Source: Myxococcota bacterium (lineage in GTDB: Bacteria > Myxococcota_A > SURF-8). From it: a DNA stretch of 64,000 nt. Below the pieces are notes generated by a model. It was not told where the DNA came from and did no database searches. It saw only the letters and a list, made by a program, of their open reading frames with translations. Position 1 is the first letter of the stretch. Each line of letters starts with the position of its first letter. Position numbers and translations under genes: made by a program. The DNA lies in NCBI GenBank assembly GCA_965140415.1, contig OZ223209.1:1248001-1312000 (forward strand), read 5' to 3'. Positions 436 to 26,314 of the stretch are shown piece by piece.

Positions 436-2283
436 TCATCCCTTTTTCTTCAGATAAAGTTGCCACTGGTTCGCCCCCTCTACATGCACCGGGTGATGTT
501 CCAATAGCTCCATATCCGCCAGACTAGAGATGATCTGTAACGCCTGTTTGGAATGATGATTGCTGAAGTGTTCGTAATTGGGTTGCCCGCCCTGGCTGCG
601 AAGGCGTTGCATGACTTCCTGCGAGCGCACGACGCCAAACGCGATGTTATCCACCACCATCAGGCTGCCGCCCGGCTTCAACCAACGCAGCATGTTTCGA
701 TAAGCGCGGGATTTGTCGTAGAAATGATTGTGGCTGCGCATCACCAGAATCATGTCGAAGCGCTCCGCTTCAAAGTCGATATCCTCCACGTAACCGCGCC
801 TCAGGTGATCTTCGATGTCATGCTCTTTCAGAAATTCGAGCAGCACCTGTGGTGGATTCGGCTCCAACACGAAGTAGTTCATGCCGTGTTTGGTGATGCA
901 GTCGCTGAATTCCTTTGTGTAGCGGCTGGGACCGCCGCCCACATCGAGCAACTCGCCTTTTAAATGCCGGAAGAAGGTCGCCAGTTTCTGCTCGCTTAGC
1001 GCGAAATGCTCCTTGGGGTCGAATTCGTACAGCGCCGGGCACCAGGAAAAATCCGGGCAGGCGGTACAGACCGGATGCGGTGAAAGCTTGACCAGATCGT
1101 GCAGGAAATCTTCGTGGTAAAGGTTGCCGCTGCGGTCGAAGTAAAGCTGGCCGAAGTCCTGCTTGATCTGTCGAATCTGTTCGATGCTGAAGTCGGAACT
1201 GTCGGTGCGACACAGGCGCACCCGGCTTTTATCGCTTAGCAGCAGCAGGCGTTCGGGATCTTCCGGCTTCCATTGTCCGGAACGGATAGAGCATGTGTGA
1301 ATATCGAAATCCGGCAGTTCGCGCAACGGCTCGTAAACAAAGGAGTTACTGATCGGCCCCAGAAACGGCGTGAGCTCCTGCTCTCCGCGCGATTGCAGGT
1401 AACTTTCGTACACCCCAGGGCAGACTTGCTTCAAGCGGCACTCCGTACAAGCCGCGACGTGGCGCCGCCCCAGAAATTCCGCCGGCTGAAAGCCCTCGCC
1501 AAGCAGTTCGGAGACATCGGAAAGATTCTCTTCGCGCAGTTCATCCATGCGGTCAGCGTAATTGGGCAAGGCGCACAACGGCAGGCCACTGTTTGTAATC
1601 GTCAATCGGGCTTGTGTTTTCGGTTGATTGTCACCGAAGACATACAGTGCTGCCAGCGCATCCGCCGCCTCTGAAATCGTCGGCAGCAGTTCATCGAAAC
1701 GCGCGGGATCGATACCCGAGGGATTGGGAAAGACTGCCTCCAGAGTCAGCGGCGCAAAGGCGCGCAAACGCTCGGCCAGCGGCAACAAGTCGTTCAGGTT
1801 GGGCCGCGTCAATACGTACACGACCTTTAGTTCCAACCCGAGCTCGTGCAGCAGCTGCAATCCCGCCCAGCTTTCATCGAAGCTTTTTGACGCGGTAAGT
1901 TGGTTGTGCAGCGCTGCCTTGTTGGCATGTATGGAGAGCGTAACCTGTCGCAGGCCGTGTCGCTGCAATAATTCAACGTAGGTCCGATCCGACAAACGCC
2001 GCCCGTTGCTGATCAGACCCGAAGACATGTGCAGCTTTTCGGCCAAAGCCATCAGTTTGGGCAGGTCAGGGCGCAGGGTGGCTTCGCCGCCGGTAAATAC
2101 CACCTGGCGATAGCCCAGTTGGGAGGCCAGTAAGATCTTTTTAGCCAGCGCTTTGGTGTCCGGTTCCGCCAGGCCGCGATAGGCGGCGCAGTCGCAGAAG
2201 ACGCAGTCATTCTCGCAGCGCGCCGTTACCTGCAACTTGGCGCGAGGTCGCTGGATGCGCGCTCCCTTGGTGGCGGCGCTCAT
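436..2283 (-). CDS. Radical SAM protein fused to a C-terminal class I SAM-dependent methyltransferase domain
   Basis: CENDCVFC (CxxxCxxC), FTGGEATL and SNG motifs. Two further Cys clusters (CTECRLKQVC, CTACPDFSWC). C-terminal LLDVGGGP, FDMI and LKPGG methyltransferase motifs. GGGAG RBS before the ATG at 2283. Confidence 0.85.
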   Translation of the reverse strand: MSAATKGARIQRPRAKLQVTARCENDCVFCDCAAYRGLAEPDTKALAKKILLASQLGYRQVVFTGGEATLRPDLPKLMALAEKLHMSSGLISNGRRLSDRTYVELLQRHGLRQVTLSIHANKAALHNQLTASKSFDESWAGLQLLHELGLELKVVYVLTRPNLNDLLPLAERLRAFAPLTLEAVFPNPSGIDPARFDELLPTISEAADALAALYVFGDNQPKTQARLTITNSGLPLCALPNYADRMDELREENLSDVSELLGEGFQPAEFLGRRHVAACTECRLKQVCPGVYESYLQSRGEQELTPFLGPISNSFVYEPLRELPDFDIHTCSIRSGQWKPEDPERLLLLSDKSRVRLCRTDSSDFSIEQIRQIKQDFGQLYFDRSGNLYHEDFLHDLVKLSPHPVCTACPDFSWCPALYEFDPKEHFALSEQKLATFFRHLKGELLDVGGGPSRYTKEFSDCITKHGMNYFVLEPNPPQVLLEFLKEHDIEDHLRRGYVEDIDFEAERFDMILVMRSHNHFYDKSRAYRNMLRWLKPGGSLMVVDNIAFGVVRSQEVMQRLRSQGGQPNYEHFSNHHSKQALQIISSLADMELLEHHPVHVEGANQWQLYLKKKG

Positions 2284-2347
2284 AACAAGCACTCCCTACA
2301 AAGAGGACGCCTCACGCGCTTGCAAATGGAGAACGGGCAGTTCATTG

Positions 2348-4786
2348 CTAGTTATCGACGCCCCAGCTACCCGGCTCCGGTCCCATTTCGAAATGCAGGG
2401 TGCCGCCGGAGGCGATCATGTCGTGGGTGAACCAGGGACTTTCCAACTCTTCGCCGTTGAAGCTGACGCTTTGCACGTAGATGTTCTCCAGCGAGGCATC
2501 CGGTGCTTCGATTTTCAACACGCCGCCCGGCAGATTGATTTCGGCCTGCGGGAAGAAGGGACTGCCCACGATGTACAGGTCGCTGCCCGGCATCGGGAAA
2601 AAGCCCAGCGCGGAAAAGACGTACCAGGCCGACAAGGTGCCGCAGTCGTCGTTTCCGGGCACACCATCTACGCCGTCTCCGTACAGATGTTCCGCGATCC
2701 AGTGCACCCATTTCTGGGTCAGATCTGCGCGACCCACCCTGGCGAACAGGTAGGCGGCGTGAATGTCCGGCTCGTTGCCGTGCCAGTAATAGGTTGGTGG
2801 CAGCAGGCTGTTCAAGGTATAGCCATCTTCCAGTTCCTGCTGGCGTTCTTCGCGTTCGATGGCCGCCTTTTCGAAGAAGGTATTCAATTCCTGCGCCATC
2901 GTCTCATTGGAGCCGAAGAGTTCCGCCAGCCCTTCCGGGTCGTGCGGCGCCAGGAAACGATAATGCCAGGCATTGCCTTCCGTATACGCCTTGACCTTGC
3001 GGCCACCCGGCTCCACCTCCCGCTCGATTTCGAACTGCAAGGGATCGAAATCGTCCAGCCATGTACCGTCGGGGCGTTTGGCCCAAAAGAACTTGTAGTC
3101 GGAATGCCACAGGTTCTTGTAATTTTTCGAGCGCTGTAAGAAGATCTCGGCTTCGTCGGTCTTGCCCATGGCCGCCGCCATCTGGCTGATGGCATAATCG
3201 GCTACCGCGAATTCCTGGGTGCGCGCCACCGGACCGCCGGTATTGGTAGTGGCGTATCCAAGGTCGATGTAATTCTGGATGTCGCTGCGACCGGAATAGG
3301 GATGCTCCGGAGGAACGGGGGCGTTGGCGGTCAACAGCATGCCCTCGAAAGCCTTTTCCGCATCGAAATCGGTGATGCCCTTGACGTAGCTGTCCGCAAT
3401 CACGACATCCGCCGGGCTGCCGTTCATACAATTGGTGTAGCCTGCGCCCATCGGCCACTTGGGCAGGTAGCCGCCCTGCTCGTACATCGTGACCAGCGAC
3501 GTCAGCATGTCGCGCTGTCGCTCGGGTTTGAGCAGGGTCAACAGCGAATGCAGGGAACGGTAGGTGTCCCACATCGAAAAGTTCGTGTAATAGGTAAAGT
3601 CCTGTGCCTCGTGCACTTGCTTGTCGAAACCAATGTATTTACCGCTTTGATCGGTGAAGGTGTCCGGCATGTAAAAGGCATGGTACAAGGCAGTCGCCAT
3701 CATGGTGCGTTGCGAATCGGTGCCGCCGGTAAAGCTCACCACCGACAATTCCTGCTCCCAGGTATCTTCCAGCTCTTGCGCGGCGGTATCGAAATCCCAG
3801 TCCGGCATTTCAATATTCAAGTTGTTGCGCGCCTCTTCGATACTGACGTAGGAAATCGCCACCCGCGCCTCGACCGGTTCTCCGTCGGAAACGTCGAAAC
3901 CCAGATACGCGCCGATCGGCGTGCCGCTTACCTCGGTGGCGTCGGCAGTGACCGTCCAGTCTTTAAAGGTTCCGGTGGAGCTGAACGGACGATTGAACTG
4001 CATGACGTAGTACACCGACAGGCCGCCGTAACGCCCGGTAAAGCCGCCTTTGCCGGTCAGCCAGCCTTCGATGGTCTGTGTGGCGGAATCGATCGTGATA
4101 TCGCCTTCGGTCACTTCGGTGTCATCCACCGCGTGGTAGTGATCCAACAGCACGAAAACTTCTTTGGACTGCGCGCTTTGTGGGAAGGTATAGCGATGAT
4201 GCGCCGCTCGTGTGGTAGCGGTCAGTTCCACCCGGATGTCGGTGTCTTTCAATGTAACGGCGTAATAACCGGGTCGGGCTTCTTCCGTTTCCTTGTCGAA
4301 GAAGGACCAGTAGCCGTTGGGCTTGACGCTGTCATTGGTGATGGCGTTGGTGGTGGGCATCAGCATGACGTGCCCCAGATCCTGTGCGCCGACTCCGTAG
4401 AGGTGCGTGTGCGAAAAGCCGGTGATGATGTCATCGTCGGCATAGTAGCCGCTGCAATGGTAAAACGGCTCCGCGCCCAGTTCCTTGCGGGTGTCGGGGC
4501 TGGGATAGATCATGCCGAAAGGCGCAGTGGGGCCGGGTAAACCGCTGCCGACATTGAAGCCTGGACCGCCGGTGCCGATGAAGGGATCGACCCAGTCGAC
4601 CATGCGCAGGGGCGCGGCCTGTTCTCCCTCTTCTTCCGTGTCCGCCCATTCGCCATCGCCATCGACCTGATCGCCGTCAGTGGAGTCACCATCCACCGGG
4701 TCGTCACCGCCGTCGTCACAGGCGAACATCAAGAAGGGAATCATCAATAAAAGCAACATCCAAGACCATCGAATAGGTGCGAACAT
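2348..4786 (-). CDS. GH92 family alpha-1,2-mannosidase-like lipoprotein
   Basis: VDPFIGTG, PFGM, GFSHTH, SMWDTYRS, YTEGNAWHY, HGNEPDIH and PGNDDCGTLSAWYVFSALGFFP motifs. Lipobox LMFAC followed by a DGD linker. Confidence 0.92.
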   Translation of the reverse strand: MFAPIRWSWMLLLLMIPFLMFACDDGGDDPVDGDSTDGDQVDGDGEWADTEEEGEQAAPLRMVDWVDPFIGTGGPGFNVGSGLPGPTAPFGMIYPSPDTRKELGAEPFYHCSGYYADDDIITGFSHTHLYGVGAQDLGHVMLMPTTNAITNDSVKPNGYWSFFDKETEEARPGYYAVTLKDTDIRVELTATTRAAHHRYTFPQSAQSKEVFVLLDHYHAVDDTEVTEGDITIDSATQTIEGWLTGKGGFTGRYGGLSVYYVMQFNRPFSSTGTFKDWTVTADATEVSGTPIGAYLGFDVSDGEPVEARVAISYVSIEEARNNLNIEMPDWDFDTAAQELEDTWEQELSVVSFTGGTDSQRTMMATALYHAFYMPDTFTDQSGKYIGFDKQVHEAQDFTYYTNFSMWDTYRSLHSLLTLLKPERQRDMLTSLVTMYEQGGYLPKWPMGAGYTNCMNGSPADVVIADSYVKGITDFDAEKAFEGMLLTANAPVPPEHPYSGRSDIQNYIDLGYATTNTGGPVARTQEFAVADYAISQMAAAMGKTDEAEIFLQRSKNYKNLWHSDYKFFWAKRPDGTWLDDFDPLQFEIEREVEPGGRKVKAYTEGNAWHYRFLAPHDPEGLAELFGSNETMAQELNTFFEKAAIEREERQQELEDGYTLNSLLPPTYYWHGNEPDIHAAYLFARVGRADLTQKWVHWIAEHLYGDGVDGVPGNDDCGTLSAWYVFSALGFFPMPGSDLYIVGSPFFPQAEINLPGGVLKIEAPDASLENIYVQSVSFNGEELESPWFTHDMIASGGTLHFEMGPEPGSWGVDN

Positions 4787-4964: not shown

Positions 4965-6713
4965 ATGATCCGTATCGACCGTATCCTCATCGGCTTCTGC
5001 CTGATGGCCGTACTCGCCTGCGCTTATTCTCCTGCGATTCATGCACAACAGCAACCTGCGGCGCAATCCATCGAGTATGCCGCCTGCTGGTCAAACCCTG
5101 AGCTGGAATCCACCGGGGTCATAAATAGCGATTTGCTACTCTATGCGGCGATTCGCGACCTCGCACAAAGCGAGGGACCGCTTGAAAAAGCATTGATGGA
5201 AATTCAACGGGAGTTACTGCAACAAGGCCGGGACGCGCTGGTAAAACGCTTTAAAATCTGGAAGTTGGACGATGCCGAATTGCGCGCGGCGCTCACGGAA
5301 TTGATGCTGGAACTGGCTGTAATGACCCGAGCTTACGAGCCGCAACGGGAATTTCTGCTGAGCTTCGAGAAATCCGTTCAACTTCGTTTCACCAGCTTTA
5401 CTCGTGAACTGATGGCGGGTGAATGGCTGCCGCTGGTGCCTTTGCCACCATTGCAGCACATGCCCGATCCCGGCGCGATGGCGCAGTTGTATAGCCTGGC
5501 GCATCCGCTGAATATGGCCACGGAAAAGGGACGACTGATGGCGCTGCTTTGGCTGCACCTATTGCGTACCGAACCGGAATTGAAGCAGCTTTGGCAGCGT
5601 CGCCGGGCGCTTGTCGAGTTGGATGACCCTTCGGCCTTTCGCGACTGGAACCGGCTGGAAAATTCCCTGCACGGGCAACCGCTGGGCAGATACAGCGATC
5701 TTGCGAACCCGGAAGTCCGCCAGCGAATGTCGGCATATTGGAAACCGGAATCCACTGCCAGAGATCCCAATACGCCCACGGCGAGCATGGACCCCTTGTC
5801 GCTGCTGCCGCTGCACAATCATGCGCTGCACCGGGAATTGCTGATCCTGGTCGACTGGGGATTGCAGCCTTCGGGTGAATTACTGGCCGCCCTGGCAAGT
5901 AACGATGACACGCTGGATGGCGCAAACCGCTATCGCTTTCAGGCAGAACCGTTGCAGTTCGAGCAGGCGAGCGCCTCATTTGCCGCGTTACTGAAAAAAG
6001 CTCGCAAGCAGGGCGACTGGCTGGCATTGCTGGACAATCAGGACGAAAGCACTTCGATGGGTTTAGCTGCCAACACCGCGCTGGCATTGTGGACGCAGGC
6101 ACAAAACGTCCGCTTGGATGTTTCCAATATGGCAGATGTTTCTCTGCCGCCGTGGGTCGAAGTGAATGAGCCTCTTTACCGGAACGTGGCCGCACTGCTG
6201 CTTGCCAGAGCTTCGCGAAGCTTCGTGATGCAGCAGCAGGATAGGCGGCTTGTCGAAACGCTGAACGCGCGCGCCACCCAATGGGCGCAGTATTTTCAGG
6301 ATCTTGCCTTGCTGACAGCGGATGCGAGCGTGGCTGCTACGATCAACCTTGCGCCGCTTCCAGAAACATTGCGTTCACTTTCCGCTTTAAAAGAAGCGAT
6401 TGCAGCACCACCCTCCGGTCGTGCGGTGTTTTCCAGCACGCTGGCGCGTAAAGGCAGCGCTACGCTTTTCATGATCGGCGAGGCGCGCTGGAACTGTACT
6501 TCCGAAACCGCCATGCAGCTTGTTTCGCAAGACGGTGACGGTGACGGTGACGACGAGATAGAACAGGTGCGGCAGCAGATGCTGTCGTTGTCGGTTCCAA
6601 GGTTGAACTACTTACAAGAAGTGATGCCCTTGCAATCCGATCTGAGCCTGGGACAGCACCGGACTCATTCTAAAGAAACCACACCGAGCACGACGCCAAG
6701 CGCACAGGAGTAA
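4965..6713 (+). CDS. Hypothetical exported protein
   Basis: Long ORF with GAGGAGG RBS and N-terminal signal peptide. Stop is 6 bp before radA. No family recognised. Confidence 0.7.
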   Translation: MIRIDRILIGFCLMAVLACAYSPAIHAQQQPAAQSIEYAACWSNPELESTGVINSDLLLYAAIRDLAQSEGPLEKALMEIQRELLQQGRDALVKRFKIWKLDDAELRAALTELMLELAVMTRAYEPQREFLLSFEKSVQLRFTSFTRELMAGEWLPLVPLPPLQHMPDPGAMAQLYSLAHPLNMATEKGRLMALLWLHLLRTEPELKQLWQRRRALVELDDPSAFRDWNRLENSLHGQPLGRYSDLANPEVRQRMSAYWKPESTARDPNTPTASMDPLSLLPLHNHALHRELLILVDWGLQPSGELLAALASNDDTLDGANRYRFQAEPLQFEQASASFAALLKKARKQGDWLALLDNQDESTSMGLAANTALALWTQAQNVRLDVSNMADVSLPPWVEVNEPLYRNVAALLLARASRSFVMQQQDRRLVETLNARATQWAQYFQDLALLTADASVAATINLAPLPETLRSLSALKEAIAAPPSGRAVFSSTLARKGSATLFMIGEARWNCTSETAMQLVSQDGDGDGDDEIEQVRQQMLSLSVPRLNYLQEVMPLQSDLSLGQHRTHSKETTPSTTPSAQE

Positions 6714-6719
6714 GCCTAC

Positions 6720-8096
6720 ATGGCCAAAGCCAAGACCATCTACAGTTGTCAGAAATGCGGTTACCAGTCTCCCAAGTGGCTGGGACGCTGCCCGGATTGC
6801 CAGAGTTGGAACTCGTTGATCGAGGAAAGCGTGGAAGCCGCCGCACCTGCACCCACCCGGACACAGTCGGGTTGGGCCATCAGTGAGGAGCACAGCGCGG
6901 CGCTGCCCATAACCGATATCGATGTGACGGAAACACCCCGTATGGTCTGCGATTTAAGTGAGTTCGACCGCGTAACCGGTGGCGGCTTGGTGCCGGGTTC
7001 GGTGTTGCTGGTCGGCGGCGATCCGGGCGTCGGCAAAAGCACGTTGGCTTTGCAGGTATTGGGGAGGCTGGCGGAGCAGGGACAATCCGTGCTGTACGTT
7101 ACCGGCGAGGAATCTGCGCGGCAGGTGAAGCTGCGCGCCGACCGGCTGGGCACCTTAAATGAACGGCTTTTAGTTGCGGCGCAGACGGATTTGAACAAAA
7201 TCCTGGGCATGATGAAGAAACTCAAACCAGCGGTGGTGGTAGTGGATTCGATCCAGACTATGTACACCTCCGAACTTACCAGTGCACCGGGGAGCATCAG
7301 CCAGGTGCGCGAATCCGCCGCGCGTTTGCTTGCACGCTGCAAGCGCGACGGTGCCGCTTCGATGCTGATCGGGCACGTCACCAAGGTCGGTTCTCTGGCC
7401 GGACCGCGCGTATTGGAACACATGGTGGACTGCGTACTCACGTTCGAAGGAGAGCGCGGGTACCCCTTCCGCGTGCTGCGTGCGGTGAAAAACCGTTTCG
7501 GCTCCACAAACGAGGTCGGCGTGTTCGAAATGGGCGAGCGCGGCCTGGAGGAAGTGGTCAATCCCTCGCAATTGTTCCTGGCGGAGCGTTCGGTAGACGA
7601 GCCTGGCTCGGTGGTGACGGTATCCATCGAAGGCACGCGCCCCTTGCTGGTGGAAGTGCAGGCGCTGGTTTCGCCTACCAGTTTCGGTACGCCGCGTCGC
7701 ACCTGCATCGGCGTGGACCCCAACCGTGTGGCGTTATTGGCGGCGGTGCTGGAAAAGAAGGCCGGGCTGGATCTGATCGGCTGTGACATCTTCGTCAACG
7801 TGGCGGGTGGCGTGCGGCTGTCGGAACCGGCGGTGGATCTGGGCATTGCCTGTGCGCTGGCCAGCAGTTTCGTGGATCGTCCTGTTCCCGCCGATACGCT
7901 GATCGTGGGGGAACTGGGTCTGGCGGGCGAAGTGCGCTCGGTCGGGCAGCCGGAGCAGCGCCTGATGGAAGCGCGTAAAATGGGTTTTTCCCGCGCGGTC
8001 ATGCCCAGTTACAAACAAAAGGGGCTGTCGATTCCAGAGGGGATGCGCGTGACGGCGGTGCGGTCGATTCAGGCCGCCATCGATGAACTCTTCTAA
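6720..8096 (+). CDS. radA: DNA repair protein RadA/Sms
   Basis: CQKCG...CPDC zinc finger, GDPGVGKS Walker A, KNRFG motif, Lon-like C-terminal domain. Confidence 0.97.
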   Translation: MAKAKTIYSCQKCGYQSPKWLGRCPDCQSWNSLIEESVEAAAPAPTRTQSGWAISEEHSAALPITDIDVTETPRMVCDLSEFDRVTGGGLVPGSVLLVGGDPGVGKSTLALQVLGRLAEQGQSVLYVTGEESARQVKLRADRLGTLNERLLVAAQTDLNKILGMMKKLKPAVVVVDSIQTMYTSELTSAPGSISQVRESAARLLARCKRDGAASMLIGHVTKVGSLAGPRVLEHMVDCVLTFEGERGYPFRVLRAVKNRFGSTNEVGVFEMGERGLEEVVNPSQLFLAERSVDEPGSVVTVSIEGTRPLLVEVQALVSPTSFGTPRRTCIGVDPNRVALLAAVLEKKAGLDLIGCDIFVNVAGGVRLSEPAVDLGIACALASSFVDRPVPADTLIVGELGLAGEVRSVGQPEQRLMEARKMGFSRAVMPSYKQKGLSIPEGMRVTAVRSIQAAIDELF

Positions 8097-8110
8097 TTTG
8101 TGAGCGTTCC

Positions 8111-9067
8111 ATGATGACAGAAACGACTTTTCCCACATTGAGTGACATTCGCGCCGCGCATGAGCGCATCCGGCCTTTCATTCATCGCACGCCGGTCGTG
8201 ACCTGCCAAAGTTTGAACAAATTGGCAGGAGCGGAATTGTTCTTTAAATGTGAGAATTTCCAGAAGGTGGGCGCGTTCAAGTTTCGCGGGGCAAGTAACG
8301 CCGTGCGTTTGTTGACACAAGAGCGGGGCAGGGCGGGTGTGTGTACGCACAGTTCCGGCAACCATGCTCAGGCGCTGGCTTTGGCGGCCAGGCAATGCGG
8401 CTATGCAGCCTATATCGTGATGCCTGAGAATTCGCCTTCCGTCAAGGTGCAGGCGGTGCGCGGTTACGGAGCGCAGATCACGTTTTGCAAGCCGACTTTA
8501 CAGGCGCGGGAGGACACGCTGCAAGAAGTCGTGCGGCAAACCGGGGCGACGTTCATTCATCCTTACAACAATGCGGATATCATCGCCGGGCAGGGGACAG
8601 CGGCGGTGGAACTGTTGGAGGAAGTCCCGGAGCTGGACGTCGTCATGGCTCCGGTCGGTGGGGGCGGATTGCTTTCCGGCACGGCGCTGGCCGTACATTT
8701 TTTATCGCCGCAGACGCGCGTCATCGCTGCCGAACCGGTCAACGCGGATGATGCCGCCCGGTCATTGCATGCGGGAAGGCTGATTCCTTCCGAAAACCCG
8801 CAGACCATTGCCGACGGCCTGCGCACTTCGCTGGGCAGCTTGACATTCCCCATCATCCGGCAGCATGTCTCCGACATTCTCACCGTCTCCGAAGCCGGAA
8901 TTGTCCAGGCTTTGCGCGCCACCTGGGAACGCGCCAAGATCCTGATCGAACCCTCCAGTGCCGTCCCGCTGGGAGCTCTGATCGAGCAGGGCGAGGCTCT
9001 ACGCGGCCTACGCATCGGTGTGATTCTCTCCGGGGGAAACATCGATCTGGATGCTCTGCCCTGGTGA
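8111..9067 (+). CDS. PLP-dependent serine/threonine dehydratase (serine racemase-like)
   Basis: KCENFQKVGAFKFRGA PLP-lysine motif, SSGNHAQ, PVGGGGL, SGGNID. Confidence 0.92.
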   Translation: MMTETTFPTLSDIRAAHERIRPFIHRTPVVTCQSLNKLAGAELFFKCENFQKVGAFKFRGASNAVRLLTQERGRAGVCTHSSGNHAQALALAARQCGYAAYIVMPENSPSVKVQAVRGYGAQITFCKPTLQAREDTLQEVVRQTGATFIHPYNNADIIAGQGTAAVELLEEVPELDVVMAPVGGGGLLSGTALAVHFLSPQTRVIAAEPVNADDAARSLHAGRLIPSENPQTIADGLRTSLGSLTFPIIRQHVSDILTVSEAGIVQALRATWERAKILIEPSSAVPLGALIEQGEALRGLRIGVILSGGNIDLDALPW

Positions 9068-20446: not shown

Positions 20447-21313
20447 TCAACCACCGATCATCATCATGGTAAGGGCATATGCCGCCAAGCCCACAACCGC
20501 ACCTACCACCAAGGCGATGAGTATGCCCTTGGTGCTAAGGCGTTCGGATTTCTCACGGGGAGGACGATCGGGAAGCATCATACCGGCCTGCCGCACCACC
20601 TGATCCAGGCGCAGCCGGATTGCAGCGGAATCGGGATTGGTTGCCAAAAACGCGCGGTAGCGAGTTGAGGCGAAGCGCAGACCGTTTTGCTGACTGCAAT
20701 AGTTGTGAAAATTGTCCAAAGTTCGTTCGTTCTCACAATCGCGTTCCACAGCCTGCCACAACAACCGGGCTTGTTCCAGACTGCCGGGTGGCATTTCGGC
20801 GTAGAGTTCCTGCTCCAGTTCCGGTTTCCAGTTGGCAAAGTTCAAGCCGCACATCGCACAACTCAGTTCGTTGTCATTGCCGTGACCGCACTTGGGACAG
20901 ACTTTCACCGGTGGCTTGACTGGCTGGGCAGAAGTTGCCGGAGGTGTTGGAGAAACAGGAATATCCGATGTGGGTGCTGCTGCTTCGGGAGCGTTTGCCA
21001 TCATCGGATTAGCAACGGCATCAGTAGCCGGAATAATCGGTGCTTCAACCTTGGGTGTACCGCGCCATTTCGCAAACACCAGGCCGCAACGGTCGCAGCT
21101 TTGCGGATTGGATTTTGGGAAACCGCATTTGGGACAGGCTTCGCTTGCTGCCGGAGTCTCTACGGTTTGCGGTTTCACTTCCGTTTCGCTAGCGGTTTTG
21201 GGCGGCTCAGACGGCTCACCCAGCGCCGGACGCCAATCCGAGGACAAGGGCAGATCGACCTCCGCCTGTGCTTTCTTTCGAGCGTCTTGATTGTCGTTTC
21301 GGTCGGCGCTCAT
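20447..21313 (-). CDS. Double zinc-ribbon protein with C-terminal TM helix
   Basis: CPKCG...CDRCG and CPKCG...CAMCG, Pro/Ala linker, hydrophobic C-terminus. Confidence 0.75.
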   Translation of the reverse strand: MSADRNDNQDARKKAQAEVDLPLSSDWRPALGEPSEPPKTASETEVKPQTVETPAASEACPKCGFPKSNPQSCDRCGLVFAKWRGTPKVEAPIIPATDAVANPMMANAPEAAAPTSDIPVSPTPPATSAQPVKPPVKVCPKCGHGNDNELSCAMCGLNFANWKPELEQELYAEMPPGSLEQARLLWQAVERDCENERTLDNFHNYCSQQNGLRFASTRYRAFLATNPDSAAIRLRLDQVVRQAGMMLPDRPPREKSERLSTKGILIALVVGAVVGLAAYALTMMMIGG

Positions 21314-21353
21314 GCTTCGCTCCTGGATTCGCCCTCGGTGCAATCGTCAGCCA

Positions 21354-23510
21354 TCAATTGGTCGGTTTTCCTTCCGGCCTGTCGAATTGTTCGAACTCCT
21401 CATAGACTTCCTCGGGGGTTTTGTCCTGAATGGGTTCCGCGTTCAATTCCTTTTTCGCCGGAACGATTACGCCGTCTGTCAAGGTCAGTATGAGCAATTC
21501 GTTGACCATCTCACCGTTTTTATCGAAACGCATCGAGCCGGTGGCTCCCTGATACTCCGTGAGGTTCAACAGGGCAGCACGAAGTTGCTTGCGGCTTTGC
21601 GCCTGGCTGGTGAGCAGTGTTTCAGCAAGCAGACCGACCGCATCATAAGCATAAGCTTCCATCGTGCCGGGCTTGCGCTTGTAGTCCTTCTTGAAAGCGG
21701 CGACGAAATCCGCGCTTTTGGGGTCCGGTGATCCGGTATCCAAAAAGCCGTCGCAGAAGATGCCGCCTTCCACCCATTTCCCGCCGAAATCCTTCAGGCG
21801 TTCGTGGTTCCAGCCATTTCCTCCCAATAACTGTACCGCCTTGATTTCATGGCCGGTGCGGCGCTTGTTGCGCTCCATGCGGCGATAGGTCGAAGCCAGG
21901 TGATTGTCGATCTCCACTTCTTCAAAGGGAATGGCAGGCGCGATCATGCCGACTTGCTTGGCGTAATCCGGAATGAAGAGGGCTTCGAAATCGACGGTCG
22001 GCACGGTTTCTTCCTCGAACTTGCGAACCACGACTCCGCAGGTCAGCTTGCTGTTATCGCGGCAAATGCCTCCGCCGCTGGCTCCATAGAGCAGTTCATA
22101 GCGCCAGACCATGCTGCGCACCTGCCGTTTGAAGGTGCTGGCGTCGTATTCATAACGCTCCGCCGCCGTGACTTCTCCACCGCGCTTGCGTACCTGTTCC
22201 CAGAATGCCAAGGCCAGATCTTCGCCGTAAGGCTGCATGGGATACAGAATGCCGAAGCTGCGCTTGCCCAGAACTTCCCAGGCATAACCCACGATTGCCT
22301 CTGCCTGCATGGTGGCCGTCATGCCGGAACGGAAGACGTTCGGTCCGATTTCGGGTAGACCTTCGCGCGGCGAGAGGCTGATCAAGGGAACCTGCAACTG
22401 CTCGGCCTGATAGGCGGCAGCCTGCGAGGTGTCGCCCATCAACGGGCCGATAATCGCAATTACGCCCTCATCGTAAACCAGTTCTTCCATGGCTTTCTGT
22501 GTCTGGATGGGATCGCCTGCCGTATCTTTATACAGAAACTTCAGTTTGCCTTCACTGCGCGCCGCAGCCTCGGTGGCGGCCATGTCGAATACCTGCTTGA
22601 CGCGCTCCCCGAATACCTTGAAGCGCCCGCTTAACGGCAGCAGGATGCCTACGCGACCCGCTTTGACGCTCTGGCGCTGCTGAAGACGTGCTAATGCTTT
22701 TTCGGCCTGTTTGCCCGCTTCGCCAAGCGGTTCGGCTTTTTTCGCCGCACTAAAGTGTTCGTGGGCTGAGGCCCAGTTGTGCAGGTGCATCTGGCGACGC
22801 CCCAGGCGATAATGAACCAGCGACAATAACGGGGCATCGTCTTCGACTTCCTCCAGCACCTTTTCCAGGTCGGATTGACTCAGGCGGTCGGCCTTGGTGC
22901 GCAGACGTTCCAGGATTTCCGGGCGCTGGGCCAAGGTCGCTTCGCGCCATGTTTCCACCAGTTCCAGAAATTCCGCTGCCGAGACGGCATGGTATGGCGC
23001 GGCCAGCCATTCGCCTTCGTTTACCGGCAAAGTCGGTGGCGTATCTTTGGTAAGTTCCGTGTCATCCGAATCGCCCGAATCGGGAGTTGGTTCTACCGCC
23101 GGTTTCGGCTTCGGGGGAGGCGGATTTTTGCGTTCCCGCTCCACCACTTTGAGCATGTGACGTGCTTCGATGGTGTACAAGGAGGTAGGAAAACGCTGTT
23201 CTACCTCGTGAAATCGCTTGGTGGCAGCATCGTAGTCCTGTTCGTACAGATCGATCTTACCCAGCGTCAACAAGGCTTCGGCGGCGTTTTTGTCCTCGCC
23301 TTTTTCCTTAATGAAAGCGGACAGTTTGCCGCGCGCCGCCTTCATCCGTCCCGCACGGAAATCCTGTAAACCCGCTTCGAAATTCTCTTGTGGGCCCAGT
23401 TGCGGACCGGATCGGTCGGGACGCGGCTCGGCGCAGGCGGTAAACGTCAGAAGCAATAACAAGCATAACCAGCAGCTTATTCTCCACTTTGCTAGCGGGA
23501 AACCATGCAT
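21354..23510 (-). CDS. LpoA/LppC-like lipoprotein (TPR + periplasmic binding-protein domain)
   Basis: Lipoprotein-type signal (FTACA), TPR-like N-terminus, VGILLPLSG, IIGPL, ALFIPD, AYAYDA. Confidence 0.8.
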   Translation of the reverse strand: MHGFPLAKWRISCWLCLLLLLTFTACAEPRPDRSGPQLGPQENFEAGLQDFRAGRMKAARGKLSAFIKEKGEDKNAAEALLTLGKIDLYEQDYDAATKRFHEVEQRFPTSLYTIEARHMLKVVERERKNPPPPKPKPAVEPTPDSGDSDDTELTKDTPPTLPVNEGEWLAAPYHAVSAAEFLELVETWREATLAQRPEILERLRTKADRLSQSDLEKVLEEVEDDAPLLSLVHYRLGRRQMHLHNWASAHEHFSAAKKAEPLGEAGKQAEKALARLQQRQSVKAGRVGILLPLSGRFKVFGERVKQVFDMAATEAAARSEGKLKFLYKDTAGDPIQTQKAMEELVYDEGVIAIIGPLMGDTSQAAAYQAEQLQVPLISLSPREGLPEIGPNVFRSGMTATMQAEAIVGYAWEVLGKRSFGILYPMQPYGEDLALAFWEQVRKRGGEVTAAERYEYDASTFKRQVRSMVWRYELLYGASGGGICRDNSKLTCGVVVRKFEEETVPTVDFEALFIPDYAKQVGMIAPAIPFEEVEIDNHLASTYRRMERNKRRTGHEIKAVQLLGGNGWNHERLKDFGGKWVEGGIFCDGFLDTGSPDPKSADFVAAFKKDYKRKPGTMEAYAYDAVGLLAETLLTSQAQSRKQLRAALLNLTEYQGATGSMRFDKNGEMVNELLILTLTDGVIVPAKKELNAEPIQDKTPEEVYEEFEQFDRPEGKPTN

Positions 23511-23621
23511 CGGTACTCACCTCATAAAGGGTTCTAAACGGCAATCAAGATACCTTAGCCCCCGGTCGCTTTGCAAGGAAAAGGGTGCCACGGTCTTCGA
23601 TTTGAAGAATCGATGGCCGTG

Positions 23622-23700
23622 CCGAATGTTGGAGCTGGGCTCCCGTCCTGCTCTATGTATTTGTCCGAATGTTGGAGCAGCGGCTCCTGCCCTGCTCCTA
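23622..23700 (+). repeat. Two direct copies of a REP-like hairpin (CCGAATGTTGGAGC...CCTGCTC)
   Basis: Copies at 23622-23654 and 23665-23700. They share the GTTGGA(G)C...GCTC(T)A frame with 9234-9262 (rc) and 31967-31994. Confidence 0.6.
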
Positions 23701-23751
23701 ATGTTTGTCTTCTTCATCAAGACAGGAGCTTTGACCATCCACCCGGAGCTT

Positions 23752-24855
23752 TTACTCTTTGGGGTTTTTCTCTACCCAGAGTCGATTGCTGAAACTGCGA
23801 ACGGTAAAGGATTCCTCGTCGCGGCGCACCAGTCGTTCAGGCGCCAAGGGCACCTTGCCATAGGGCGTATCGGCGGCGAACTGCGGCACAGCCAACCCGC
23901 TGGTGTGACCTTCCATGCGTTCGATGATCTCCAGCCCGACTTCCACCGGTACACGCAAGTGTTCGGTTCCTTTAACTAAATGAGGCAGGAACAGGTAATA
24001 GGGGCGCACTCGGGCCATCAGCAACTTGTGGCACAACTCGGTCATGATTTCCGCCGAATCATTCACGCCACGCAAAAGAACCGACTGATTTCCCAAGGGA
24101 ATTCCGCGATCGGCCAGGCGCGTCAAGGCGGCGATGGCTTCCGGCGTCAATTCGCGCGGATGGTTGAACTGCACGTTGACGAACAAGGGGTGAAAGTCCG
24201 CCAGACCACGGGCGAGTTCTTCGGTGACGCGCATGGGCAGCATGGCCGGAGCGCGGGTGCCGATGCGCAGAATCTGAACGTGTTTCAGTTCCCGCAAACG
24301 CGCCAGTTTGTCGAACAAGACCTTGTCGCTCAGCATCAGGGGGTCGCCGCCGGTCACCAGAACATCCCTGATTTCCGTATGTTCTTTCAAATAGCCCAGC
24401 GCCTGCTCGAAGGCATTGGCAGGTGGGGTTTGATGGGTGCGGCGTTTTCTGAAGCAGTGGCGGCAATACACCTGACAGATGCTGGTGATACACAGCGCAA
24501 CCCGATCCGGGTAAAGGTGGATCATATCCGGTGTCGGGCAGTGGCTCTCTTCCAGCAAGGGATCGTCTTCGCCGAGTACATCGTGGCATTCGCGCTCGCT
24601 GGGAACGATCTGCCGTCGCAGGGGGCAATTGGGGTCATTTACGTCGATCAATGTCAGGGCATAAGGTGTAATCGCCCAACGAAACTCTTCGGCGGCGCGT
24701 TGTGCTCCTTGCTGTTCTTCTTCGGAAAGTGACAGGATTTCAGCAAGTTGGGGAATCGTTTCGATACGATGCTGCATCTGCCAGCGCCAGTCGGACCACT
24801 GCGACTCGGATGCGCCCATCTGTTGGCGGATCTTCTCGGGGACTGGTACGAACAT
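23752..24855 (-). CDS. KamA-family radical SAM 2,3-aminomutase with atypical substrate-site residues
   Basis: WSDWRWQ, ITPY, YPDRV, CQVYCRHCFR, TGGDPL, RIGTRAP, FNHPRE, NQSVLLRGVND, RVRPYY, GHTSGLAVP, GK (PLP Lys). Confidence 0.92.
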   Translation of the reverse strand: MFVPVPEKIRQQMGASESQWSDWRWQMQHRIETIPQLAEILSLSEEEQQGAQRAAEEFRWAITPYALTLIDVNDPNCPLRRQIVPSERECHDVLGEDDPLLEESHCPTPDMIHLYPDRVALCITSICQVYCRHCFRKRRTHQTPPANAFEQALGYLKEHTEIRDVLVTGGDPLMLSDKVLFDKLARLRELKHVQILRIGTRAPAMLPMRVTEELARGLADFHPLFVNVQFNHPRELTPEAIAALTRLADRGIPLGNQSVLLRGVNDSAEIMTELCHKLLMARVRPYYLFLPHLVKGTEHLRVPVEVGLEIIERMEGHTSGLAVPQFAADTPYGKVPLAPERLVRRDEESFTVRSFSNRLWVEKNPKE

Positions 24856-24936
24856 AAAAAGTGCTTTCTTGTGAAAGGGAACCGACGCTTTAACTTGGCT
24901 ACGACCAGGTTCGGGCGTCGAAAGGGAGAACGCGGA

Positions 24937-25341
24937 TTAGACGAGCTGGCTGCTCACCGGCAGACGCGGTCCGGGAACTTCGGCGCGGTCGAGTTCCTTG
25001 ATCCGGTTTTTCTCGTCTACAAACACCAGCTTCGGCGTGTACTTGCGGGCTTCCTCATCGGTCATTTTCAGCCAACTGGCGATAATCACCAGATCGCCCG
25101 GCTTGGCCAGATGCGCCGCCGCACCGTTGATGCAGATTTCGCCTTTGCCGCGAATGCCCCGCAGAGCATAGGTTTCAAGGCGCGTGCCGCGGGTCACGTT
25201 CCAGATGTGAACGTTTTCATTTTCCCAAATGTCGGCAGCTTCCAGCAGGTTAGGATCGATGGTCACGCTTCCTTCGTATTCCACATCGGCGTGAGTGACG
25301 GTTGCCCGGTGAATTTTCGACTTCAGCATTGTTCGTTCCAT
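24937..25341 (-). CDS. panD: Aspartate 1-decarboxylase (pyruvoyl proenzyme)
   Basis: [20 protein letters not shown] (G/S self-cleavage site), [22 protein letters not shown]. Confidence 0.96.
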
Positions 25342-25553
25342 CGTGTTCTCCTCGCATACATATGATGCAGGGTGTCTATTCCAAAGAGACACCAGCGGGT
25401 GAAAACAGATGAAATCCTTAATGGGGGGAAGATGAATTGCGGCGAAACGTCCGGTACAGCATCCCGTTTTCCGGGGTTGCCATCCGCTTTTACGACGAAA
25501 CAGAGGGCCTTAGCATCCATCGTCCAGGTCCACAAGGATCCCAGCGACGGGGG
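25342..25553 (-). ncRNA. Candidate structured 5' leader of panD (possibly pan-motif-like)
   Basis: Lies between the promoter and the panD start; at least four hairpins can be folded by eye. Confidence 0.45.
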
Positions 25554-25554
25554 A

Positions 25555-25583
25555 AATATAAAGTTAACGAAATTAAATGTCAA
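25555..25583 (-). promoter_or_regulatory. sigma70 promoter for panD and the KamA-like gene
   Basis: TTGACA-17 nt-TATATT on the minus strand. Confidence 0.75.
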
Positions 25584-25622
25584 TATTAATGATCAAAAAG
25601 CCATAGGTTTTTGGGGTTTTCA

Positions 25623-25651
25623 TAGACAAACCTCTTTGCCCTTTGTACAAT
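25623..25651 (+). promoter_or_regulatory. Divergent sigma70 promoter for the MBL hydrolase gene
   Basis: TAGACA-17 nt-TACAAT. Confidence 0.65.
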
Positions 25652-25693
25652 ACGGATCCTGTGTGTTTCTTGGTGAAGAATGAGGAAAAGTGA

Positions 25694-26314
25694 ATGAAAT
25701 TAGACGTCTTTGTTGTTGGAGCCTTTCAGGAAAACACCTATATCATGACGGATGAGGCAAGCAAACTTGCCTATATCATCGATCCAGGTGGCGATGTGGA
25801 ACAGATTGTGGCGCATCTGGAGAACAACGGCTTGACCGCCAAGGCGATCATCAACACTCATGGTCACATCGATCATATCCTGGGTGTGAAAGCCTTGCAG
25901 GATATTTTAAAGATTCCGTTTATGCTGCATCAGGCCGATGAACCTCTTGTCGATCAGGCCGAAGCCAGCGCCCGACTTTTCGGTCTACAGGCGCAAGGCA
26001 CCCCGAAGGTGGACGATTACCTTCAAGATGGACAGGAACTGGAACTGGGCGAAACACGCATCAAGGTGCTGCATACGCCGGGTCATTCTCCGGGTGGAGT
26101 CTGTTTCCTGTCGGGAGAAGATGTGGTAGTCGGCGATACCCTGTTCGCCATGAGCATCGGGCGTACCGATCTGCCCGGCGGCTCTTTCCAAAGCTTGATT
26201 CAATCGATCAAAACCCAGTTGCTCACCCTGGACGACGCCGTGCGCGTTCATCCGGGTCATGGTCCGATGACGACCATCGGTCGCGAGCGACGCACCAATC
26301 CTTTCATCGGATAA
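25694..26314 (+). CDS. MBL-fold metallo-hydrolase (glyoxalase II-like)
   Basis: THGHIDH, HTPGHSPG, GDTLF, GRTDLPGG, PGHG. Confidence 0.92.
   Translation: MKLDVFVVGAFQENTYIMTDEASKLAYIIDPGGDVEQIVAHLENNGLTAKAIINTHGHIDHILGVKALQDILKIPFMLHQADEPLVDQAEASARLFGLQAQGTPKVDDYLQDGQELELGETRIKVLHTPGHSPGGVCFLSGEDVVVGDTLFAMSIGRTDLPGGSFQSLIQSIKTQLLTLDDAVRVHPGHGPMTTIGRERRTNPFIG

Follow-up and report, generated by a model that had tools for sequence, protein, structure and literature searches.

The window analyzed here is a stretch of 64,000 nucleotides (nt) of a Myxococcota bacterium (assembly GCA_965140415.1, contig OZ223209.1, positions 1,248,001 to 1,312,000 of the forward strand), and the present study concerns a locus within it at which panD, encoding aspartate 1-decarboxylase, is followed by a gene of the KamA family of radical S-adenosylmethionine (SAM)/pyridoxal phosphate (PLP) 2,3-aminomutases, hereafter the mutase. 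The features of this locus, listed in the direction of reading and in window coordinates, were as follows:

25555–25583, minus strand: sigma-70-like promoter site (TTGACA, 17 nt, TATATT; 11/12)
25447–25551, minus strand: conserved structured 5′ leader with two hairpins, beginning right after the promoter site
24937–25341, minus strand: panD, aspartate 1-decarboxylase, 134 amino acids (aa), ATG start after a GAGGAG Shine–Dalgarno sequence
24856–24936, minus strand: spacer between panD and the mutase gene, exactly 81 nt
23752–24855, minus strand: KamA-family radical SAM/PLP 2,3-aminomutase gene, 367 aa, from the open reading frame (ORF) list and its translation
23620–23745, minus strand: two tandem hairpin units, each with the end GCTCCAACATTCGG, located 3′ of the mutase stop codon

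A longer panD frame starting with GTG extends to position 25392. The initial annotation of this DNA, made from the letters alone, had placed the KamA-like gene 81 bp after panD on the same strand with no clear terminator between them. Both statements held: the gap was exact, and the spacer contained no terminator-like site on the minus strand, all five sites detected being on the plus strand. Consequently, panD and the mutase gene are likely to be co-transcribed, starting at the promoter-like site and with the leader included, as judged from the arrangement of these elements. A look-up of sequencing runs for positions 23600–25600 listed two DNA sets from a single study and no RNA set. A TTGAC box was present at the equivalent position in four of the seven aligned upstream regions (the source genome, G030, G036, and G042), and the two sigma-70-like sites of the region represented no excess over shuffled sequences (1.4 ± 1.2). 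The tandem hairpin unit, found at no other place in the genome, has no T run and for this reason did not score as a terminator; it is possibly the end of the transcript.

The panD product matched the Pfam family Asp_decarbox (PF02261) over positions 1–115 of 115 and passed the NCBIfam equivalog TIGR00223 (161.3 bits, cut-off 106). Its sequence contains the motif YEGSVTID, the Gly-Ser of which we take to be the self-cleavage site. A single copy of the gene was present in the source genome and in each of five relatives that were searched (G036, G042, G012, G024, and G054), and panC and two panB copies were located at other places in the source genome. As the sole copy, this panD is the housekeeping gene, serving coenzyme A (CoA) synthesis.

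The mutase protein combines the Pfam domain Radical_SAM with the start of LAM_C, and the KamA family model TIGR00238 was the sole NCBIfam model that it passed (300.5 bits, cut-off 199.2). It scored below the cut-offs of the models for glutamate 2,3-aminomutase (TIGR04368, the best-scoring named model, 414 bits and 650, respectively), AblA lysine 2,3-aminomutase (TIGR03820, 383 and 525.4 bits), and arginine 2,3-aminomutase (TIGR04468, 357 and 600 bits). Failure to pass the AblA model is compatible with lysine as the substrate.

Residues were mapped by HMMER alignment to chain A of the Clostridium subterminale lysine 2,3-aminomutase (LAM; PDB 2A5H; E-value = 8.9 × 10−108). The alignment covered residues 15–358 of the mutase and stopped at LAM position 361 of 416; the mutase ends 9 residues later, so that it lacks the C-terminal tail, which spans about 50 residues in LAM and includes the Zn cysteines. 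The cluster cysteines C127, C131, and C134 corresponded to LAM C125, C129, and C132, and R136 to LAM R134, whereas the mutase motif H113-L114-Y-P-D-R, aligned with LAM H111-R112-Y113-P-D-R, had leucine in place of Arg112. S267 was found at the position of Cys268, F-L-P-H292 at that of Y-Q-C-D293 (Asp293 to His), and D329-TPYG-K334 at that of D330-APGGGG-K337, with the aspartate and the PLP lysine kept and the loop 2 residues shorter. In LAM, Asp293 and Asp330 presumably hold the epsilon-amine of lysine, and we take Arg134 to be the alpha-carboxylate arginine, Lys337 the PLP-binding residue, and the C-terminal cysteines the Zn-binding ones. All five motif statements of the initial annotation (Asp293 to His, Asp330 kept, shorter loop, HLYPDR, and missing tail) were confirmed against 2A5H. 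Residues C127, C131, C134, R136, D329, and K334 were invariant among 20 members of the clade described below, and 17 clade-conserved pocket positions differed from LAM, including residues 114, 120, 135, and 290–292. With the catalytic apparatus intact in sequence (CxxxCxxC, the GGDPL motif, the carboxylate arginine, and the PLP lysine), the best explanation is that the gene encodes a predicted functional amino acid 2,3-aminomutase of the KamA radical SAM/PLP type.

The closest relatives of the mutase belonged to one order (Myxococcales, Myxococcota, and Deltaproteobacteria metagenome-assembled genomes). In five of the seven genomes of its clade (the source genome, G030, G024, G054, and G012, the last from another family of the same order), panD was located directly upstream and co-oriented. 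Since G030 shares a syntenic block of 11 genes with the window, it adds little to the evidence for this link. In G024, G054, and G012, none of the other neighbours from the window was present and the flanks were unrelated, yet the pair was kept. In genus g4 (G036 and G042), the mutase orthologue was 53–55% identical and panD was located on another contig. Thus, the conservation of the panD linkage beyond simple synteny is supported. Across the relatives' loci compared, the pair was accompanied by no further conserved gene, be it for a ligase, a transferase, or a transporter. Full-text literature searches returned no description of panD adjoining a KamA gene, of a naturally occurring alanine 2,3-aminomutase, or of the family linked to ATP-grasp ligases that is considered below. 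As for the genes 3′ of the pair, a gene for a 718-aa tetratricopeptide-repeat and periplasmic-binding-protein lipoprotein-like product (21354–23510, minus strand) and a 298-aa ORF without a family match (20447–21343, minus strand) were kept only in the fully syntenic G030.

In the upstream-region alignments, the leader was common to all five joined panD–kamA loci. The covariance model built for it (R1) was trained on these five loci, so that its matches there are the training set; it had no match upstream of 22 stand-alone panD genes, nor at the panB and panC loci of the source genome, the unlinked mutase genes of genus g4, the epmA loci, or the efp loci. Seven base pairs of the leader showed changes on both sides, compared with 3.3 in shuffled alignments, and only 1 of 500 shuffles reached seven. 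The whole-leader fold was no more stable than shuffles (z = −1.47). The motif of the first hairpin was unique in the source genome, and a search of the window at 23000–26000 against Rfam (E ≤ 1) returned no leader match, only one chance-level small RNA match (15.9 bits, E = 0.53). The leader could be a new cis-regulatory RNA.

The pocket of the mutase was compared with those of 183 KamA genes from genome and metagenome loci (184 sequences with the query), a sample picked for similarity to the query and with three genomes represented twice. The signatures, read at LAM positions 112, 134, 293, 330, and 337, were distributed as follows:

RRDDK: 80/184
VRQDK: 36/184
QREAK: 27/184
RRKNK: 23/184
RREDK: 6/184
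LRHDK: 5/184, the signature of the query (L-R-H-D-K)
rarer signatures: 7/184

RRKNK represents the glutamate enzyme (all three sequences tested passed TIGR04368), and the RREDK genes adjoin efp and epmA; none of the 11 VRQDK, QREAK, and panD-linked sequences tested passed any equivalog model. Positions 112 and 293 covaried: Arg occurred with Asp, Glu, or Lys, Val, Leu, or Ala with Gln or His, and Gln with Glu, and loss of Asp293 was always accompanied by loss of Arg112. The short loop D-T-P-x-G-K was common to all 45 sequences with a hydrophobic residue at position 112 (VRQDK, LRHDK, ARQDK, LRQDK, and LRHSK, the query included) and was also found in all 27 QREAK sequences. Phylogenetic analysis grouped the panD-linked sequences into a clade of 23 (FastTree support 0.998), nested inside a V-R-Q-D-K superclade (support 0.873) whose sister group comprised the glutamate and QREAK clades; within the V-R-Q-D-K family, the 293 site alternated repeatedly between His and Gln. 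Among the best 119 near-length matches in a collection of 5.8 billion proteins, 86 were VRQDK and 15 LRHDK. A metagenome scan yielded relatives at ≤50% identity among the matches listed and so brought the close clade no new members. The QREAK sequences form a further unnamed KamA clade with the short loop, found in green sulfur bacteria and Desulfuromonas-like genomes (27 sequences; loci L064, L071–L072, L152–L158, and others), and a glutamine synthetase gene lay downstream at 4 of the 27 loci.

Consequently, the altered pocket is a trait of a very large unnamed KamA family and is not peculiar to the panD-linked gene, and the initial annotation's use of it as evidence of a new substrate loses its force. 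The variable pocket positions of the mutase would carry a net charge of −1 (L/H/D−), as in the lysine enzyme (R+/D−/D−), compared with +2 in the glutamate enzyme, and with the net charge kept, a cationic side chain such as that of lysine may still fit. The earlier statement that the pocket fits neither the lysine nor the glutamate enzyme therefore stands insofar as no named specificity class was matched but is too strong with regard to lysine.

A gene for a Ddl-like ATP-grasp ligase (PF07478) immediately preceded the V-R-Q-D-K gene (16 VRQDK loci), often with the two genes overlapping, and ATP-grasp::mutase fusions with this signature numbered 21 among the 120 longer proteins listed (examples of the family: loci L009–L011, L085, L088, and L172–L194; proteins P0122–P0150). 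This position behind or within the ligase suggests that the mutase product is handed to it. A third gene, LPG_synthase_C/DUF2156, was found by clustering at four loci (from Nitrospirota, Planctomycetota, and metagenomes), with Pfam run on three of them. The family may represent an alternative beta-aminoacyl ligation system. The EF-P of sister-family genomes reads KPGKGGAF in 13 of 13 cases, whereas that of EpmA-bearing genomes reads PGKG[S/V/Q]AF. One protein, P0163 (944 aa), is a fusion of KamA, ATP-grasp, and Peptidase_S51 (cyanophycinase/dipeptidase E) parts, an architecture that hints at dipeptide-like products of the ATP-grasp-linked KamA enzymes.

The substrate of the panD-linked mutase was considered against these data. 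According to a review (PMC12856214), EpmA joins (R)-beta-lysine, the product of the KamA-family enzyme EpmB, to a lysine of EF-P. Our tentative preference, held as plausible rather than probable, is that the mutase is a non-canonical EpmB-like lysine 2,3-aminomutase feeding EF-P modification. In this scheme, the mutase would act on L-lysine and yield beta-lysine, which the EpmA of the same genome would ligate to the lysine at the tip of EF-P; the mutase would thus be a non-orthologous stand-in for EpmB. The source genome encodes an EpmA (TIGR00462, 325.8 bits, cut-off 286.9; NF006828, 280.3 bits, cut-off 264), located among holB, ricT, and metG and far from any KamA gene, as well as a single EF-P with a PGKG lysine tip, as in E. 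coli. EpmA was found over the cut-off in six of the seven clade genomes (the source genome and five of its six relatives), the exception being G036, where none was found and the genome is 86% complete, whereas it was over the cut-off in none of the 23 genomes carrying the sister clade. In the phylum sample, EpmA was found in 220 of 401 genomes but in none of the genomes sampled from the families with the sister enzyme (f22, 0/25; f18, 0/8; f15, 0/11; f29, 0/11).

The argument that carries this reading comes from G012, a single contig of 5.18 Mb. It encodes EpmA and a Lys-type EF-P, and the KamA family model and the EpmB model each had exactly one match in it, in both cases the panD-linked gene. 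With EpmA and EF-P present and the panD-linked gene as the only KamA member, the clade would supply beta-lysine there. The mutase was also the sole KamA member in G036, an incomplete genome. In this phylum, EpmA was accompanied by a KamA gene in each genome checked. All 16 KamA genes fetched from EpmA-bearing families had the RRDDK lysine signature, and of a further 16 EpmA-bearing genomes none lacked a KamA gene; the match exceeded the cut-off in 15 of them, and in 8 the gene lay no more than 3 kb from epmA. No protein passed the EpmB equivalog in the five genomes of the order searched (G000, that is, the source genome, G005, G012, G018, and G048), although this model, TIGR03821, is narrow, with only E. 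coli passing among 14 control genomes, two of which have EpmA. Like E. coli EpmB (YjeK; 342 aa), the mutase is short, lacks the C-terminal domain, has Phe after the third cluster Cys, and shares its genome with EpmA, the ligase that partners EpmB, as well as with a Lys-type EF-P. A Spirochaetales genome (G401) was considered as a second case of a sole KamA gene with EpmA and was rejected: it has two KamA genes, and its EpmA-like match (277 bits) is just under the cut-off. The initial annotation had named clustering of homologues with efp or epmA as grounds for refuting its idea; such a tie was found in the phyletic distribution of EpmA and in G012, where no other KamA gene occurs, but not as adjacency.

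Several observations weigh against the EpmB-like role. The identity of the mutase to E. coli EpmB is just 33%, and its score falls below the EpmB model (225 bits, cut-off 369.3); at the 112 site EpmB reads Lys, at the 293 site it retains the Asp that the mutase has lost, and E. coli epmB adjoins efp, whereas the mutase gene is near neither efp nor epmA. The occurrence of the sister clade in EpmA-less genomes, coupled to an ATP-grasp ligase, suggests that the ancestral job of the family was something other than EF-P modification. The source genome, G024, G030, G054, and G042 also carry a canonical LAM that could feed EpmA, and G005, of the same order, has only the canonical type. The key argument leans on one genome, G012, and its kin are not independent. 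Furthermore, a role in EF-P modification leaves the coupling with panD unexplained, and the unit of leader, panD, and mutase gene is accounted for by no reading considered here.

The canonical LAM of the source genome (L001, G000:C1:805832–809815) matched the AblA model with 581 bits (cut-off 525) and adjoins genes for Kdd (3,5-diaminohexanoate dehydrogenase) and a KamB-like reactivase, a lysine-fermentation cluster that points to an anaerobic lifestyle.

A rival reading is a new non-lysine specificity (for example, for ornithine, diaminobutyrate, arginine, glutamine, or asparagine) tied to beta-alanine metabolism, with a joint end product (an osmolyte, a polyamine-like compound, or a small peptide) under the control of one leader. 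Keeping of the pair in five of seven genomes, in three of them with unrelated flanks, is in line with such a link, as are the leader at all five joined loci and at none of the 22 panD genes standing alone, the failure of the mutase to pass any specificity model, its 17 clade-conserved pocket differences from LAM, and its shorter PLP loop. However, the pair has no third conserved gene, the sole panD is needed for CoA synthesis regardless, genus g4 has both genes unlinked and without the leader, and operons joining unrelated housekeeping genes are common; we regard this explanation as doubtful. A broader version, which we consider rather unlikely, would make the leader RNA, panD, and kamA a self-contained riboswitch-controlled beta-amino-acid module. 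It would comprise a new ligand-sensing leader and a mutase of undescribed specificity (for alanine, or for a short cationic or amide amino acid), while the V-R-Q-D-K family, together with the ATP-grasp ligases fused to it, would constitute an undescribed beta-aminoacyl conjugate pathway replacing EpmA/EpmB-type chemistry in EpmA-less lineages.

Alternatively, the mutase could share the job of the ATP-grasp-linked sister family, its beta-amino acid being joined by a Ddl-like ligase encoded elsewhere in the genome. The panD-linked clade is nested in that family and has the same signature type (hydrophobic residue at 112, Gln or His at 293, Asp at 330) and the same D-T-P-x-G-K loop, and the sister genes lie behind or are fused to PF07478 ATP-grasp genes. 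In the source genome, locus L212 (G000:C1:3408000–3423000) encodes a 685-aa double Ddl-like ATP-grasp protein (ORF 6157–8214, minus strand), preceded by a B12-binding radical SAM gene and followed by an S58 (DmpA/BapA-type) peptidase gene (5039–6160, minus strand). This pair was examined as a partner of the mutase, but full-length orthologues were found only in G030, G024, and G054; G012 had only a weak housekeeping-Ddl-like match to the double ATP-grasp protein and G036 none at E ≤ 1 × 10−30, and since it is not conserved in these two genomes, it was not taken as the partner. Moreover, no LPG_synthase_C/DUF2156 gene was found in the source genome, which, unlike the sister-family genomes, has EpmA, and in the clade panD occupies the upstream position held elsewhere by the ATP-grasp gene. 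A shared job thus appears quite unlikely.

The initial annotation had favoured an L-alanine 2,3-aminomutase occurring in nature, which alongside PanD would open a second route to beta-alanine, an anaerobic one. The gene does adjoin panD and is probably co-transcribed with it, and residues 114 and 135 are bulkier or more hydrophobic than in LAM. According to a review (PMC9850924), engineered alanine 2,3-aminomutases (Cargill) were derived from lysine enzymes via an active-site Asp change (D331G/D339H); they resemble the mutase in the KamA scaffold and in the replacement of one active-site Asp, by His in one variant. In the panD-linked protein, however, the Asp lost is that of the Asp293 site, and D329, at the Asp330 site, is invariant in the clade and kept in the sister family. 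The Asp replaced in the engineered enzymes is reportedly that of the Asp330 site. In addition, panD is the sole housekeeping copy here and was present in all seven clade genomes and in 21 of the 23 sister-enzyme genomes (20 over the cut-off); the distributions are therefore not complementary, and the family is no substitute for PanD. An operon with two enzymes for the same product would be redundant, and no PanD (PF02261) fusion occurred among the 120 longer relatives listed. It is thus unlikely that the mutase family makes beta-alanine, and the alanine specificity proposed for this gene is very improbable.

A glutamate 2,3-aminomutase (Eam) is the least credible candidate, next to negligible, for although Glu_2_3_NH3_mut was the best-scoring NCBIfam model and the tree places the family and the glutamate clade as sister groups, the score of 414 bits is far under the cut-off, the three tested sequences that pass have Lys and Asn (R-R-K-N-K) where the mutase (L-R-H-D-K) has His and Asp, the net pocket charge is opposite, and the source genome encodes another, long KamA protein whose 293 site is Lys. 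The latter (L002, G000:C1:2396359–2400399; ORF 1291–3210, minus strand) comprises 639 aa, about 220 of which form an N-terminal extension, and similar long forms were found in G018, G048, G024, and G030. It resembles a long glutamate 2,3-aminomutase that is said to have been reported from a methanogen.

Overall, what the initial annotation had observed was confirmed, and its interpretation was partly supported. The clade is unnamed and its link with panD is real, and recurrence beside panD was observed within the clade, whereas the wider family adjoins an ATP-grasp ligase and not pan genes. If the mutase is a stand-in for EpmB, as we tentatively prefer, the two-aspartate rule for lysine specificity in KamA enzymes would not be general, and the enzyme lineages behind EF-P beta-lysylation would outnumber those in current annotation by at least one. 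The comparison also exposed a very large uncharacterised KamA family, coupled to Ddl-like ATP-grasp ligases, in families of the phylum without EpmA, and turned up a candidate new cis-regulatory RNA before a pantothenate gene.

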